Source: Octopus vulgaris
Lineage: Eukaryota
Assembly: GCA_951406725.2 (NCBI GenBank)
Contig: OX597818.1
Location: 85,312,001-85,376,000 of the forward strand
Length of the DNA stretch: 64,000 nt
Direction of reading: 5' to 3'
Within the stretch, counting starts at the first letter, position 1; every line of letters begins with the position of its first letter. Position numbers and translations under genes: made by a program. The notes under the pieces were generated by a model. The model had not been told where the DNA came from and searched no databases. It was given only the letters and a program-made list of their open reading frames with translations. Below are positions 18 to 49,158 of this stretch, in pieces.

Positions 18-128
18 AACGGGAAGCTTTATGAAAATAGACAAAAGACGAAGGCAGGTGGAAAACAAACAAACAATTGTATTAGTATGGCGCTCAGGAA
101 ATATAAATAAAACAAGTCTTTAACGTTT
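18..128 (-). mobile_element. Truncated copy of microsatellite-embedded Penelope-like family A
   Basis: Near-identical to 15070-15180 (aacgggaagctttatgaaaat...gtattagtatggcgctcagg...aagtcttt). It breaks off inside the hammerhead motif and lies between TA-rich microsatellites. Confidence 0.6.
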
Positions 129-3237: not shown

Positions 3238-3520
3238 TAGGGGAGAATTCACACACAAAAAAAAACAAAAGATGAAGACAGGTGGTGTAAACAACAAACA
3301 GATGTATTAGTTTAACGCTCAGGAAGTGAAAACGTCTTTAACATTTCGAGCCTACGCTATTCCACAGAAAGGAACACAGAAAGAAACAAGGAGAGAAAAT
3401 AAAGAATGTGTAGTGGCTACTGATCTATCATGGCGAATGCTGGACAGAGGGGTCACACAGGAGAGCTAGGAAGAAGGGGAGATAATAATGTAATGGTGAT
3501 CCCAAAATGAAGGTGCGCGT
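3238..3520 (-). mobile_element. Diverged Penelope-like family A copy with decayed hammerhead-like motif (3336-3371)
   Basis: Shares acaaaagatgaagacaggtgg...gtattagt...cgctcagga...tttcgagcctacgc...cagaaagaaacaaggagagaaaa with the 15070 copy. Minus strand reads CUUU-CUGUGGA-A-UAGC(GUAG)GCUC-GAAAUGU-U-AAAG. Confidence 0.55.
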
Positions 3521-5520
3521 GTGTGTGTATAAGAGAGGATGTATGTGCTTGTGGAAGAGGGCTGGTGACCTTGACGTGTGTGTGTATATGTATGTACATA
3601 TAGCTATGTGGTTAAGAGGTTTGCTTCTCATTCATGTAGTTACTGGTTCAATTACACTGCCTGGTATCTTGGACAAATGTCTTCTAACATAGCTCTTGGT
3701 TGACTATGGCCTTGTAAGTGGAGTTGATAAATGGAAACTAAAATAGGCCTGTCATATTAATACTTTTATTATAGAATATGTATTTTAAATCATCCTCATT
3801 ACCACCACCATCATTGTCATTAGCATCCAGGCAGTGATTTTTCCAGAATCATTAGTCTGCCACACAAAAGTACTTAACGCTATTTCTTCCAGCTTCATGT
3901 TCTAAGTTCAAATGTCACTCAAGTCAATTTTGCTTTTCATCCTTTCAAGGTCAATAAAACAAGTACCATTTGAACTCTTGGGGGTCAATGTAATTAACTA
4001 TTCGTGCCTCTCAAAATTGCTGGTTTTGTGCCAAAAATGAAAAAGAATTTTTTTTATTGAAATTATTAAGCAGGTACAGTAAAATTTAGTACCAGTCATA
4101 TGCTGAGATATTTCTCATTGTTGCTTTAAAACCCTTGCCCTATTGTTTTGAATTTGAAACTTATTCAGATCAACCTAGCTTTTTAGTGATCCTGTTATCA
4201 ATAAACTATTAGAAAATGTTGTATGATTGTGTGTGTGTATACATACATACAGATAAATCCCCCCCCCATACACATACGTGCACATACACGCACACACAAT
4301 TATTCTTTCACAAGTATAGTGTTGACAGTGACTGAAGTTTCAGTGTGATTAGCCTTCATTAGACTGTCCGATAAATATATTCTCTATATTAAGTATTGAG
4401 TAATTCTTTAGTTTAATGTAATGTAAAATTATTTTGTGGCATTTCATCTGTCTTTACGGTCTGAGTTCAAATTTCACCAAGGTCATCTTTGCCTTTCATC
4501 CTTTCAAAGATCAATGAAATAAGTATCAGTTAAGCCATGGGGCTGTAATTGACTAGCCCATTCTCTCTCCCTGCCAAATTTCAGGCCTTTGTCTATTGTA
4601 CAGGAGATTATAAAATTAAACACACACACGTACATACAGACCCAGCATAGCTGAAATATCTTCTGGAAAGGTGATAGCCCAGTGCTAGTTTTATATCAAC
4701 AAAAACTGTTGTAGTTGATGTAACATACTTTTGGAATGCTGTGCTGGGAAATCACTTTATACACAAGCTGTGATTCTCATTTTGATCATGTGACATTTGA
4801 CTCTATTCACTTTCTTTATCATCTCCCCTTCTTGTTCTCTCTCTTGTTCTCTCTCTCCTCCTCTTATAAGATTAACTGTGGTGATGGTGATGATAATAGT
4901 AGTAGTGGTGGTGGTGGTTATTGTCGTGTGATAGGGGTACTTTTAAGATAGCCATCAGCATTTCTACTACTGTCATCCTGTAGTACTTTTAGCATCTCTT
5001 TGTCATCACCACAATGACTTTTATGTTACCATTGGCATCCTTCATCATCAACAGCAGCATAATGATCATCATCCACACCATTACCATTGTTGACCATAAT
5101 CTTAACTTGTGGTTACCATTATCAGAATAGTTGCATTCTGATCAGCATCAACACCACCATCATCATCACAATTGTTATCACCATTATTACAATTGTCATC
5201 ATCATTGTCATTGTCATAACAACCACCCTAGTCATTTTCATCACAATTGCCACCATCATTATCATGGTGGACTAGAGGCGCAGGCATGGCCGTGTGGTAA
5301 GAAACCGGCTTCCCAATCACATGATTCTGAGTTCAGTCCCACTGCATGGCACCTTGGCAAAATGTCTTATACTATAACCTTGGGTCAACCAGAACCTTGT
5401 AAGTGGATTTGGTTGACAGAAAGTGAAAGACATCTCTTTGCTTTCAATTATATATATGAGTGAGTAGACAAACGAAAGAAATGCACTCAACACATTTATT
5501 GGGAGTTATATGTATAAATC

Positions 5521-5640
5521 AAACAGTTTGATTCAAACTCCTTGAGTTTCGAGCATGTGGCTAGTCTTCAGACCCTAATGGCCAAAGACTAGTCACACAC
5601 TTGAAACTCAGAGTACTGAGGAGTCTGAATCAAACTGTTT
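5521..5640. repeat. Imperfect inverted repeat / fold-back insert with hammerhead-like core remnants
   Basis: Arms 5521-5568 and 5585-5640 are reverse complements with an 8-nt insertion. The minus strand of the left arm has CUGAAGA...GAAACUC-AAG-GAGU. Flanked by TA-rich microsatellite. Confidence 0.6.
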
Positions 5641-5661
5641 TGAGATATATATACATACATA

Positions 5662-14767: not shown

Positions 14768-15069
14768 GTTATGCTTAAAATATTAGTCTTGAACTGTATT
14801 AAAAGGATATTTGATGCTGGGATTGTTACATAATACCTTAGCTAATTAAGATTTCAAATACTCAGTATCATAAAGCAATGTGGGTGTTGATATATATATA
14901 TGTGTGTATGATATGTGTGTATGTATATATATATATATATCTTCATCATAGAAGCAAAAAGCATTTGAATGTTTTCCTGGGAGGTTTGTTGAGACAAATG
15001 TATTTATTAATACAGCTTCTCAATATTTGAAAATGTAGTATATATACATATATATATATATATACATAT

Positions 15070-15275
15070 AACGGGAAGCTTTATGAAAATAAACAAAAGA
15101 CGAAGGCAGGTGGAGTACAAACAAACAATTGTATTAGTATGGCGCTCAGGAATATAAATAAAACAAGTCTTTTACGTTTCGAGCCTATGCTCTTCAACAG
15201 AAAGATACACAGAAAAGAAACACAGAAAGAAACAAGGAGAGAAAAAAATGCGTGCAGAGGCTAGCGAATCAACAT
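15070..15275 (-). mobile_element. Penelope-like family A copy with hammerhead-like motif
   Basis: Homologous to 18-128 and 3238-3520. Abuts (TA)n at its left end. Confidence 0.6.
15168..15205 (-). ncRNA. Minimal type I hammerhead-like motif with variant core
   Basis: Minus strand reads UCUUU-CUGUUGA-A-GAGC(AUAG)GCUC-GAA-ACGU-A-AAAGA. Stem I is 5 bp, stem II is 4 bp, stem III is the loopless palindrome ACGU, and the triplet is GUA. The core has A6->U plus one extra A. Confidence 0.55.
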
Positions 15276-15518
15276 AATGCACATCTCATATTTGTTCCAA
15301 TATATTTGTATGTAAACTTCAATTTAGACATGCACATGTATTTATGAGAGAGAGAGAGAGCTTCTGGGAAATGGATGGATAATATAACTTTCTCTAAAGC
15401 TTGGTGTTTAATTTAAAAGACAATGTATTTTCATGGACTAGTGAGATATGCATTTGGTCTAACCCATCTCTGCAAAGGTATCATCAGTACCACTATCTCT
15501 TCAAGTGTGTGCATATCT

Positions 15519-16859: not shown

Positions 16860-17345
16860 ACATAAACATGACCCTACACATAAACACATTACTACAAATA
16901 CGTAAACGCATTACTTCACATATGTAAACACATGACTACACATATGTAAACACATGACTACACATATGTAAACACATTACTACACATATGTAAACACATT
17001 ACTACACATATGTAAACACATTACTACTCATATGTATACACATTACAACATATACGTAAACACAATCCCACACATGTAAACACTGTCCCACATATACATA
17101 AACATGATCCCACACATACATAAACACAATCCTACACATATACGAACACACAACCCTACACCTATACGAACACAACCCTACACCTATACAAACACAACCC
17201 TACACCTATACGAACACAAGCCTACACCTATACGAACACAACCCTACACCTATACGAACACAACCCTATACCTATACGAACACATCCCTACATATATACA
17301 AATACAACCTTACACATGCATAAACACTATCCTACACATGCATAA
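16860..17345. repeat. 22-bp minisatellite with two variant blocks
   Basis: cacatatgtaaacacat(g/t)acta units (about 16915-17045) grade into cacctatacgaacacaacccta units (about 17130-17290). Confidence 0.85.
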
Positions 17346-18250
17346 AGACTACTCCACATGTGTGTCAACACATCAACATGCACACTGCACTTTCCTGCAT
17401 ACAAATTGATGCAGTATATAGTGTATGTATGTAATGTAAACATTCAACCATCATCACTATCTTTTTAAATCCTGTTGCATTTCACATGGGATTTTTGGCC
17501 CTTCAAAGATGTCTTGGTGTATAATTCAACTACCTTTTTTTGGCTGTATAAACTTTGGTCTGAAAACTTCAACTTGTATGCTGGAAACTATGGTACATAA
17601 ACACATCACCCTATATACTTAAAACAACACAACACATATGAAACCTAAACATCTTCATGCATACTCAGAACAACACAACTCCACACAGACATGTGCATAA
17701 TGTCAAGAAATGTAAGCTTCTGTAAACCTTCTGATATCCATCAACGATGGCGTATGTCAAAGTAACAATGTGTTATTGGTGCGTTGCTCCTGATGGCACA
17801 GTAGGCAGTAGTGGTGGTGAGGAGATGGTTGTTTATGGATTATTTTGAAATATATTTTAAGTTCTTTGTAGAATTCTTGTTGGTTACTAACAAAGGTATG
17901 AAGTTATAGTTTTTTTCTTTAGTCAAGTCAGTTTCAGGGATCTCTGAATCTATTTGGTGTGTGTGGAAATTGTTGAGTGCAAATATACATACATACATAC
18001 ACATATAGACACACACACACACACATATATATATATGTGTTTATATATATATATACATACACACACACACATACATGTACAATCATAGGCATCAGTATGC
18101 ACATATATATATATAAATAAAGCAATAATAAATCTCTGAACGAGATATAAACAGTAACCGCTCAACAACGTAAGGTGTACTAGCCATCTGAATGTGGCTA
18201 GCCACTGGGGGTGGGGTGTTACTGATGCTTTTAGCCCCAGGCGATCAACG

Positions 18251-37319: not shown

Positions 37320-39074
37320 TGCATGCTTTGGTTACCAATGGCTATGCAGAAGACCAACCAGCTTCCTGCTTTGATGATAGAAGAAGCTATTTGACATTTT
37401 CTAGCTAGATTCTGGCTAGGAATATACTCATACCAAGTGTTCACATTCACATGAGTTATGAGATAGACTGATAAAAATGGCAGAGGTAGAGAGGTGAAGT
37501 GCATAGAATCATATTCAGAGAGAGAGAGAGAGAGAGAAAGACAGTGCAAAAATAGTGGGAGAGGAGAGAATGAAAGATAATGGTAGAGAATCTACGACCA
37601 TACTGGAACTCTACTTTGAAAGGTTTAGTTAAACTAATCAACTCCTGTACATATTTTTCTCTCTCTTTTTCAATTTTTTTTTACGTTAAATCTGACATAG
37701 CTTATTCTGTTGGTAAGTTTTGCTGAACTAGTAAGTTAAAGGAATGTAAACAAACCAACACTGGTTGTCATGCAGTGATGGTGGTAGTGGATAAAAAGGA
37801 CACTCACACACACTTATGCATACACGTGTATACATGCACACATACACACTTCAAGGTAGTGCCTCAACACAGCTGCAGTGAAATGACTAAAACAAATAAA
37901 AGAATAAAGAATATTCTCACACACACACACACACACACACACATGATGGGCTTCTACACAGTTTCTATTGACCCAGCATGATTGCTGTTGAATGACTAAA
38001 GCATGTAAAAGATGATAAATAAGACATCATTAAGGTTGGCTGTTTTTTTTTTTTCGTTGTCCATTTGATTATATCAGTACCTGGTAACTACTGGTGTTAA
38101 TGCAATTGATCATAGACTTTCCCTGCTTCTCCTTCTCCATATTTTTGGTCGTTCCAAAGAAAAATTTCATTAATCTTAACTCCTGCTGGATCATCAAAGA
38201 CATAGTCTTTTTTGGGAATTACTCGTACCATATTCTTGGCAATAATATCAGTAAATTCCCTTGCATACTTTCATTTTATGTACATTAGTTATTGCTTTAG
38301 AAATAGTAAAAGAGAAAATTCTGCTAGAATATGAAGACACTGCAAGAGATAGGTGTGAAACTTTTCAGCTGACCAAAGGTTTGCATTTTGTGTATTCTTA
38401 TCTAAGAAAAAGGAAGAAGGGAATTATGAAAAATAGACATTTCTAGAAAGAAATTCTTTCAGATCAGAGAGGTGTATTTTTTTTTCCATGTTCTAGACCA
38501 AAGATTTCACTCTTAATTTCCATCTCTTGCCATTAGTCTTTACTTCATCTCTGTCTGTCTCTATCTCTCTTTTATAAAAACATCTTAATAATTCAATCAT
38601 GTGGTGCCCTCTGGATGGCCATTAATACAAAGAGAGTTAACTATCTCTTCACAATGTGAGGCTGGGTTAGAAATTCGAATTTGAAAAAGAGGAATATGAA
38701 AGGATATACAGAGTGCACATATATAAATATTAATATAAATACAGGTACAGCATTGATTTTCCACAACTTTTGGTTCCAAAGCATTTCCCAGTTAACTGAT
38801 TTTTCCAAGCCAGTGATGGTTACCTTGGCCAACACACTGTCTTTTAAACAAATACTAAATTTACTTAATGATATGAAATACAGGTACCTGTACGTTTGTA
38901 TAAATAATACAGGTTCATTCATACTGTACTGTGCAAGGTACCAATAAATTAGTCTGGTGGCCACAGGAATTGGACATTACTGTTTGTGAATTAGTGCGGA
39001 TTGTAAGCGGTTCCAGACCATCACTGTCTAGAAAGTTGGAGTTGAACCTGTACATAATTAAAAAATTTTCTTTT

Positions 39075-40250
39075 ATCGGCATAGGCGGAAAATTTGGAGA
39101 GTGGCTGCACAACTTCCTAAAAGACAGAAGACAGGCAGTTGTGAGCAATGGAGCCACCTCCAAGGAAACACAAATAACAAGCGGTGTTCCACAGGGCACT
39201 GTCTTGGGGCCACTGCTGTTCATAGTGGCCCTTTCAGACATGCCTTCAGTTGCTACGATGGCCACCCTTGCTAGCTATGCAGATGACACAAAAGTCTCCC
39301 ACACAATACAAAACCCTGAAAATATTGCGCATCTGCAACAGGAGTTGGATAAAATATACAGGTGAGCGGAGGACAACAACATGCAGTTTAATGCAGGTAA
39401 GTTCCAGGCCCTGCGCTACCGGCACACAAAGGTAAATGACGTGCAGACTGGATACACTGGCCCAGGAAGAATTTCAATCCCTGAGTCAAAATCAGTGCGT
39501 GACCTAGGCATTGACATGAGCAATGATGCATCTTTCCAAGTGCATATTATTAATCTGGTTATCAAATGCAGATGGCTAGCTGGATGGATTCTCCGAACTT
39601 TCAGAACAAGAGAGAAGGAGACACTGACGGTCCTCTGGAAAACATTCGTCCTCAGCCGCTTGGACTACTGCTCCCAACTATGGTCACCACACAATATAAA
39701 ACTAACAGCAGAACTCGAAGCAATTCAGAGAAGCTACACAAAGAAGATCGTCTCAATGCAAAATATCAGCTACTGGGAAAGACTGAAAGTATTAAACCTC
39801 TTCTCCCTAGAGCGGAGGCGGGAGAGATATGCGGTGATATACATCTGGAAAATCCTGGAGGGTCTTGTCCCAAACTTTGGCATTCAAAGTTACCCCAACC
39901 ACTGCATGGTGCCAAAGATTCCAACATCACCATCAAAGTACAGGACCAGATACTGCAACAGCTTGGGTTTCAGAGGACCACAGCTCTTTAACATCCTCCC
40001 TAAATGCCTGAGAGACTTACATGGTGTGGATGTGGGTTTCTTTAAAACTAAACTGGATCTCTTCTTGTCAGGAGTCCCAGATGAACCTACCTCATGACAG
40101 GAGACACAGATGCGGGCAGCAGCATCGAACTCCCTTGTTGATCAAGTGCCACGTATCAGAGTGGATTCACATATTAGTGTAGCTCATTCAGCGGTGGTGC
40201 CCCAGCATGGCCGCGGCCTTCGGGCTAAAACATTTTAAAGGATTTAAGGA
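39075..40250 (+). mobile_element. 5'-truncated non-LTR retrotransposon (CR1/L2 group), RT C-terminal half plus 3' UTR
   Basis: SGVPQGTVLGPLLF, YADDTK, MQFNAGK, RDLG, RLDYCSQLWSP and LFSLERRRER motifs. In-frame TGA at 39363-65 (W->stop). ORF ends at 40097, followed by a 3' stem-loop and a short tttaagga tail. Confidence 0.92.
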
Positions 40251-48087: not shown

Positions 48088-49158
48088 TCTTGTCAGATGA
48101 TAGTCATCTCGCATTTGGTGTGGTTGTTCTGATTTACTTTCATCCTTACATGTGTGCAGATGTAACTTTTCACCCGACGTCGAAGCCCATTGGGGCTTTA
48201 TAAAGTATAAAACTGATACAGACATGAAATGATATGAGACACCTGTATGTGATTGGATTTAAGCAACAAAAGCTTGTACAATACTCTTGCCACTCCTTCA
48301 ATGACCCGTGCTATTTTTATTGCAAGTTTAATGTCTGAGTATCTTTCAGCTGGAAGAGCTGCTTTCCCCACAGCTTTGTCAAAAATAGCAAGAGCCCCCT
48401 ATACTCCTGGGCATTCTGTTTGGGACCCTGACAAATACTAATTTTCTGAATCAGAACAAATCTGGGAGATAATTAAGGGGTGACTCCACTCTCTCCTCAA
48501 ATCCTAAACTCCCAAATTGGCACCACTTCACTGAATACAGTTTAATGTCATGTTCAGGACATGTTTACTCCCCCCCCCCACACACACATTGAAGTAAGCA
48601 AACAGATTGTAGACAAACAGTTATGTAAGAATAAAAGTAAAGAGTGACAGAGGCAGGCATAAGAGGTGGGCACTAGAATTGTGGTGTTCAAAGACCAAAA
48701 GAGATACAATGTGCTAAATCCATTAGATGGATAAAGTAGAGGAGAGGGGATTGATTTGAGCAATAAAGGACAAAAAACAGAAAACAAGGCAAGGAGAAGG
48801 TGGAGGAGAGCGATGGTGTCAGTAGAAATAAAATGACACTCGATGGGGTGGGGAGGTGGTAAATATAGTGGTCAATTGAACGTTGAATTATTAATTAGGC
48901 TTCAAGACATCGTTGTCATATCTGGCTCGTTACTGACTCTCCTTCATTTCCCCCTGCTTTGCACCACACTTTCCATAATTTGTGTGTGCATGTGTGTGTG
49001 TATTGGCCCTGTCTGGATTGTTTGTATGGGCCATCATCTGTACACGTTTAACCCTCTTCAGAAAATCCATTCCCCTCATATGAACAGACACACCCTTACA
49101 TTCTCAAGAGACTGGCATTGACAGATGAGCAAATGCAGATATGTATTCACAAACACAT

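Follow-up and report, generated by a model that had tools for sequence, protein, structure and literature searches.

A6 is counted among the conserved bases of the hammerhead core, and a repeat in the genome of Octopus vulgaris raises the question of whether a hammerhead that carries U at this position can still cleave, or whether it has been kept for something else. The repeat lies in a window of 64,000 nucleotides (contig OX597818.1, positions 85,312,001 to 85,376,000 of the forward strand), and all coordinates given here are those of the window. On the minus strand, positions 15205-15168 contain every part of a minimal type I hammerhead, with the core CUGUUGA. A preliminary description of this DNA had listed the stems, the core, an extra A, a loopless ACGU and the triplet GUA, and the sequence agrees with it in each of these elements. 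The hammerhead motif is a real feature, and its parts are as follows.

15168..15205, minus strand: minimal type I hammerhead with U at core position 6 (from the sequence, a descriptor scan and family variation)
15201..15205, minus strand: 5' arm of stem I, UCUUU, which pairs with AAAGA at 15168-15172 over 5 bp (sequence)
15194..15200, minus strand: core C3 U4 G5 U6 N7 G8 A9, with U6 at 15197 and N7 at 15196 (sequence)
15193, minus strand: unpaired A between positions 9 and 10.1 (sequence)
15181..15192, minus strand: stem II, GAGC/GCUC, 4 bp, with the closing pair G10.1-C11.1 (15192/15181) and the 4-nt loop AUAG
15173..15180, minus strand: G12 A13 A14, the loopless palindromic stem III ACGU (15177-15174) and N17 (15173)

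N17 is A in this copy and the cut triplet is GUA, a known natural hammerhead triplet; from hammerhead numbering, the predicted cut site lies between 15173 and 15172. The motif was the sole match of the first hammerhead scan, which covered the whole window on both strands. A strict descriptor with position 6 left free, fitted to the motif after the motif had been seen, gave one match in the window versus one in 150 blockwise dinucleotide shuffles. An alternative register, shifted by 3 and with the core UUGAAGA, was dropped because it leaves stems I and II unpaired and puts the variable base at U4. In an Rfam scan of the whole window, a hammerhead was absent among the best 150 of 165 matches, which were mostly microsatellite or miRNA noise, and a local scan at E<=10 returned no hammerhead match, only snoZ162 at E=8.1. 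The expectation that standard searches would miss this motif was thus borne out, since CUGANGA excludes U6 and Rfam is silent at E<=10, as it perhaps is for canonical minimal hammerheads too.

These results bear on the simplest alternative, in which the likeness to a hammerhead arose by chance in an unrelated repeat. The post hoc relaxation of the descriptor at position 6, the lack of a hammerhead in the local Rfam scan and among the best 150 of 165 window matches, and a predicted minimum fold other than the hammerhead all speak for chance. The single match in 150 shuffles argues against it, as do the presence of all other core bases, the presence of marks that were not required (base 9.1, G10.1-C11.1 and the palindrome) and a family variation that avoids the constrained positions. 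A chance origin is therefore considered highly improbable. As a separate observation, a looser scan returned a weak hammerhead-like string at 48334-48385 on the minus strand, with a U3-A8 type core, a 5-bp stem II and a 3-bp stem I, which is probably a chance match. When the motif pattern was searched in other contigs, viral contigs gave no matches, metagenome contigs two loci and genome contigs one; these matches (L001-L003) were attributed to chance, being without the hammerhead core or the family flank.

The closest published counterparts are the minimal hammerheads of metazoan Penelope-like elements (PLEs). Their reported consensus consists of CUGANGAH, G..C, GAAAN, a palindrome and NUH, with U-rich 5' and AU-rich 3' flanks (PMC4209133). 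Three features are reported to have come up although the search did not ask for them, namely a base inserted after position 9 and before 10.1, closure of stem II by G10.1-C11.1, and a stem III that is palindromic (Cervera and de la Pena 2014, PMC4209133). Apart from A6, the octopus motif fits this consensus, flank composition included. C3-G8, U4, G5, A9, G12 A13 A14, A15.1-U16.1 and H17 are all present, as are the base between 9 and 10.1, G10.1-C11.1, the loopless palindromic stem III and a short stem I (4-5 bp), and the likeness extends to the U-rich 5' flank and to copies that are mostly solitary and dispersed. The assignment of the layout to the Penelope minimal type therefore stands. The extra A does not belong to the novelty claimed for it, because a base between 9 and 10.1 is already a conserved feature, found in 54 of the 56 rows of Fig. 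S3 in that study. The difference lies at position 6, with A there and U here. A6 occupies all 56 rows of Fig. S3, none of them from a cephalopod, a count that is partly circular because the descriptor used required A6, and the family-wide core variant reported within the metazoan set is U3-A8 (PMC4209133). Because the octopus motif lacks A6 and hence CUGANGA, it is filed as a variant built like a PLE minimal hammerhead and not as a canonical member.

The surroundings of the motif provide further evidence on the kind of element that carries it. Copies of the repeat in the window and their flanks are listed below.

15070..15275, minus strand: copy of the high-copy non-coding repeat, 5'-truncated, with its 3' end at about 15072 against (TA)n (contig depth, sequence)
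15072..15167, minus strand: U-rich tail of about 100 nt from the motif to the common 3' end, without AUG (sequence)
15039..15069, no strand: (TA)n-type microsatellite at the 3' end of the insertion (sequence)
3240..3520, minus strand: second, longer copy from a sister subfamily, with its motif at 3335-3372 (sequence, alignment)
18..128, minus strand: third copy, which ends within the motif, at A13, and has microsatellite on both sides (sequence)

Alignment bears out the earlier proposal of three related copies at a TA/TG microsatellite. The 18-128 copy is 95% identical to the 15070-15275 copy over 111 nt, 3258-3419 is 74% identical to it over 181 nt, and all three copies abut a TA/TG repeat at their common 3' end, while their 5' ends differ. 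The proposal that a minimal hammerhead runs through this three-copy family holds in part, since the whole motif is present in one copy of three. The second motif, placed earlier at 3336-3371 and said to keep the same architecture, occupies 3335-3372 and does keep U6 (CUGUGGA) and the extra A. It differs from the 15205-15168 motif at 6 of 38 positions, among them C15.2->U and G10.1->U, the latter disrupting the conserved pair with C11.1; it also has a 4-bp stem I and looks decayed. The 18-128 copy contains neither the core nor stem II. The window alone thus offers two witnesses for U6, and the claim that it is family-wide therefore rests on the contigs of public runs described below.

A common 3' end with variable 5' ends fits an RNA that corresponds to the hammerhead strand, with a fixed start of reverse transcription and 5' truncation. 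In the three window copies, 101, 100 and 102 nt separate the predicted cut site from the 3' end. PLE insertions are 5'-truncated, and Neptune and Naiad types favour microsatellites (PMC8557442); the octopus copies show the common 3' end, the 5' truncation and the microsatellite targets of PLEs (EN+), a pattern that is not PLE-specific. A similar geometry is reported for Poseidon of the green anole, with a cut at +26 and a start of reverse transcription between +111 and +118 (Frangieh 2024, PMC11167929). Subtraction of these figures places the start 85-92 nt past the cut, similar to the 100-102 nt in octopus, so that in both cases the hammerhead lies about 90-100 nt upstream of the 3' end of the insertion, and both have AT-rich targets. 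The two differ in that the Poseidon ORF starts at stem II and its core is canonical, whereas the octopus motif is without a nearby AUG. As a minor observation, the 15070-15275 copy exceeds the 3240-3520 copy by about 12 nt at 15206-15229, a near-duplicated unit just 5' of stem I.

Variation across the family was sampled in contigs from 4 of 24 public runs (four studies, organism labels A, B, D and B), aligned to 15040-15310 at 80% likeness, which excludes relatives less than 80% alike and families with a different stem II. The runs contributed 21,842, 8,628, 5,534 and 2,784 aligned contigs, which cover about 15072-15275; the last of these runs (X12) is guessed to be an RNA run, and its contig count was not counted as expression. 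In all four runs, contig depth, which does not equal copy number, begins in the bin 15070-15079 and is near zero beyond 15279. The repeat family is very abundant.

Position 6 (15197) shows no listed variation in this sample: no other letter is listed at 2% or more in any of the four runs, in a variant table that misses some letters (A>C, C>T, G>C and G>T changes are absent from it altogether, and N7=G, although seen in the window and among loose ends, has no entry). Other letters reach at least 2% at 22 places, six of them inside the 38-nt motif. At N17 (15173), A is replaced by U in 20-34% of the family depth, and the position is listed as A or U only, both compatible with the NUH rule. The loop II base 15188 is G in 78-92% of the family depth, and N7 (15196) changes from U to C in 14-29%. 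The minor variants are at the two ends of stem I (3-7%) and at C11.1, where a change to U (1-3.5%) retains a G-U pair; the G10.1-C11.1 pair holds for the family as it does for this copy. Apart from the free N7, C11.1 is the only core base with a variant row. The three motif variants above 10% all fall on the 6 free positions (N7, N17, loop II), which has a chance of 0.0024 computed post hoc, and the listed indels (10 rows) all spare the motif. The sister copy, 74% identical, also has U6, and so has, in each of the four runs, the consensus of the loose ends at 15214. Because no other letter is listed at position 6 and the common variants fall on free positions, U6 is the family norm and not decay, in agreement with the earlier view that it is shared and not a one-off change. 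This norm is established for relatives with the same stem II; families with a different stem II, A6 relatives elsewhere in the genome possibly among them, would fall outside the alignment.

An excess of conservation in the motif over its flanks, the lack of which had been named, together with a lack of cleavage in dimers, as grounds for abandoning the hammerhead, is weak and not significant. At a threshold of 10% or more, 0 of 32 motif places are variable versus 12 of 143 flank places (p=0.08), and at 2% or more the figures are 3 of 32 and 16 of 143 (p=0.53). The summed depth peaks over 15170-15199; in run X7 it reaches 1.24 million there, compared with 0.30 and 0.31 million to the two sides. 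At 15165 or 15204, the edges of the motif, 196-331 contigs per run cease to fit in three of the runs. These loose ends overstate the divergence of the flanks because they adjoin indels of the 15070-15275 copy and resemble the sister flanks. Their flanks have a mixed consensus (agreement 0.54-0.66), and they point to at least one further subfamily with a U6 hammerhead.

If U6 is the norm, the next question is what it does to the RNA. The active hammerhead fold is not favoured by folding prediction. The isolated 38-mer is predicted to prefer a rod with a U6-A15.1 pair (p=0.98, -9.2 vs -6.8 kcal/mol), the predicted probability of stems I and II is about 0 when flanks are included, and a double-hammerhead dimer is predicted at -12.7 kcal/mol, whereas the best dimer fold reaches -22.0 kcal/mol. 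The z-scores of folding, -0.7 and -1.8, do not stand out. The 15206-15229 stretch contributes to a hairpin predicted to sequester the core.

Such predictions suit an explanation in which a Penelope-type hammerhead has been dead since A6 changed to U in an ancestral master element, so that the motif hitchhikes or serves as a protein-bound stem-loop and cleavage is dispensable. Besides the predicted rod with its U6-A15.1 pair, this explanation draws on the comprehensive mutagenesis of one type III hammerhead, in which the single and double mutants of the CUGA turn are reported to be all of low activity except for the C3G:G8C swap (PMC9901934). It also draws on Poseidon, for which hammerhead mutants are reported not to have impaired insertion in vitro and no RNA-seq reads to have ended at the cut site (PMC11167929), on Naiads, which spread without hammerheads (PMC8557442), and on the non-significant conservation of the motif over its flanks. 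The pattern of variation is harder to reconcile with a dead motif. The common variants are found exactly at N7, N17 and loop II, and no listed indel lies within the motif. A change of N7 to C or G breaks a pair of the rod fold yet is free in the hammerhead. Moreover, U6 is common to subfamilies that are 74% alike, and the other core positions are not drifting at the family level. Loss of activity in the ancestor is held to be a serious possibility, though its probability falls short of even.

A natural precedent suggests that a change at position 6 need not abolish cleavage. The A6C hammerhead of phage Bcep176 is reported to cleave weakly in Mg2+ and well in Mn2+ (PMC3088659, PMC7151607), with a kobs of <0.1/min (Perreault 2011, PMC3088659; Naghdi 2020, PMC7151607). 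It resembles the octopus motif in that a natural substitution at position 6 leaves the remaining core unchanged. It differs in being A6C, a single phage hammerhead and assayed, whereas the octopus A6U belongs to a high-copy animal repeat on a minimal scaffold and is known by sequence.

The identity of the carrier was sought in the coding content of the window. A Pfam search with a low-complexity filter found no PLE ORF among 128 window ORFs of at least 55 aa; the sole family above the cut-off was RVT_1 at 38904-39362, 23 kb from the motif. Metazoan PLE minimal hammerheads are reported as PLE-borne (PMC4209133), whereas the octopus repeat, because no PLE ORF was seen in the window, is assigned from its motif and insertion pattern, on which it is likely to represent the pseudo-LTR end of a Penelope-like retrotransposon. 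Such elements are reported to be abundant and recently active in Octopus vulgaris (PMC13282606). None of five short motifs was found in the source of the Octopus Naiad consensuses, Naiad_Ovul and Naiad_Obim (PMC8557442 supplement), by a string search from which matches across line breaks may be hidden. In the same source, the labels 'HHR_core' or 'HHR_half_core' are attached to many Naiads, Naiad_Ovul and Naiad_Esco among them (PMC8557442 File S1). The RVT_1 match itself (E=6e-9) belongs to a reverse-transcriptase fragment at 38904-40097 on the plus strand, split by one stop and read as LINE-type; the best named relative of its second piece, 39366-40094, is from Argonauta hians (62%).

A different carrier could be envisaged, namely a non-autonomous, non-coding element, retrozyme- or SINE-like, that uses Penelope proteins and whose hammerhead may still work. 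No ORF or AUG was found around the motif, short copies are very numerous, and beyond 15267-15275 the loose ends give a mixed consensus (agreement 0.54-0.64), which is the picture expected at the end of an element. Animal retrozymes have also been reported to derive from PLE pseudo-LTRs (bioRxiv 2026.07.22.740005), and such non-LTR retrozymes are likewise non-coding, with a type I hammerhead. However, retrozymes are described as head-to-tail tandem repeats with canonical type I hammerheads (PMC7229834), and in animals with circular RNAs, whereas the octopus copies are 5'-truncated and carry a minimal motif. Within the window the copies stand alone, at spacings of 3 and 12 kb and with no tandem pair, and have three lengths, one at least 100 nt longer at the 5' side, and no joint supporting head-to-tail units is listed in the contigs of the four runs. 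A carrier of this kind is judged unlikely.

The explanation preferred here, which is given about even weight, is that the U6 motif is the pseudo-LTR ribozyme of a Penelope-like retrotransposon and would cleave after N17 at a slow rate, in dimers only and probably aided by the protein of the element. The RNA would correspond to the minus strand. In a tandem transcript, two motifs could pair through the palindromic ACGU to form stem III, and U6 would slow cleavage without abolishing it, as the natural A6C does. A reverse transcriptase/GIY-YIG protein supplied by a parent copy may then nick TA repeats, and cDNA synthesis would start some 100 nt past the motif, which would leave short ends truncated at the 5' side, such as the three window copies. 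Dimer dependence and help from protein both have parallels, since canonical minimal motifs are reported to be inactive alone and weak as dimers (PMC4209133) and the Poseidon hammerhead is reported to need the protein of its element (PMC11167929). A lone copy such as 15070-15275 is probably inert because it is without a neighbour in cis to pair with. Cleavage is favoured over a dead motif because the family variation obeys hammerhead rules, the changes at N7 that would break the rod pair being free in the hammerhead. A bolder form of the argument, that an active hammerhead lineage with U6 extends over tens of thousands of copies and is rescued by dimer geometry, protein or metal, is tentative and rather doubtful.

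The minimal scaffold, the extra A, the TA-repeat targets and the truncated ends are ordinary Penelope biology, and U6 is the new part. A literature search of listings and abstracts, with Lunse et al., Repbase and Dfam outside its scope, found no report of a natural U6 hammerhead family or of the octopus motif. Lunse et al. (RNA Biol 14:1499) reportedly describe small PLE hammerhead variants with a diminished stem III and cleavage as dimers, in a collection said to hold about 150,000 hammerheads, U6 cores possibly among them. The natural exception to A6 found in print is the single phage A6C case, and the octopus U6 belongs to a high-copy animal family. This family, which keeps the other hammerhead constraints, provides a natural experiment on whether Penelope hammerheads must cut at all. 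If the U6 motif cuts, mutagenesis underrates the tolerance of the core, and motif searches give too low a count of these ribozymes. A motif that does not cut would be kept for another job, such as protein binding. Should an active U6 lineage exist, cephalopods, and perhaps PLE clades regarded as 'hammerhead-less', would hold many ribozymes that CUGANGA searches miss.

Several other features of the window are recorded here in their own right. A foldback element of about 145 bp at 5509-5653, with arms 71% alike, lies between TA repeats. Within it, 5571-5544 on the minus strand contains a canonical CUGAAGA core, a stem-II-like stretch and GAAAC, without G10.1 and without a clear stem I. BLAST found no match between this foldback and the U6 family, and the foldback is possibly a decayed inverted pair of hammerheads. 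A perfect 40-bp inverted repeat (201-240 / 480-519) encloses about 240 bp beside a TA tract and is MITE-like. The window as a whole has 36% GC and many microsatellites, its other repeats presumably resemble octopus SINEs, and a tandem array with a 22-nt period occupies 16884-17389.
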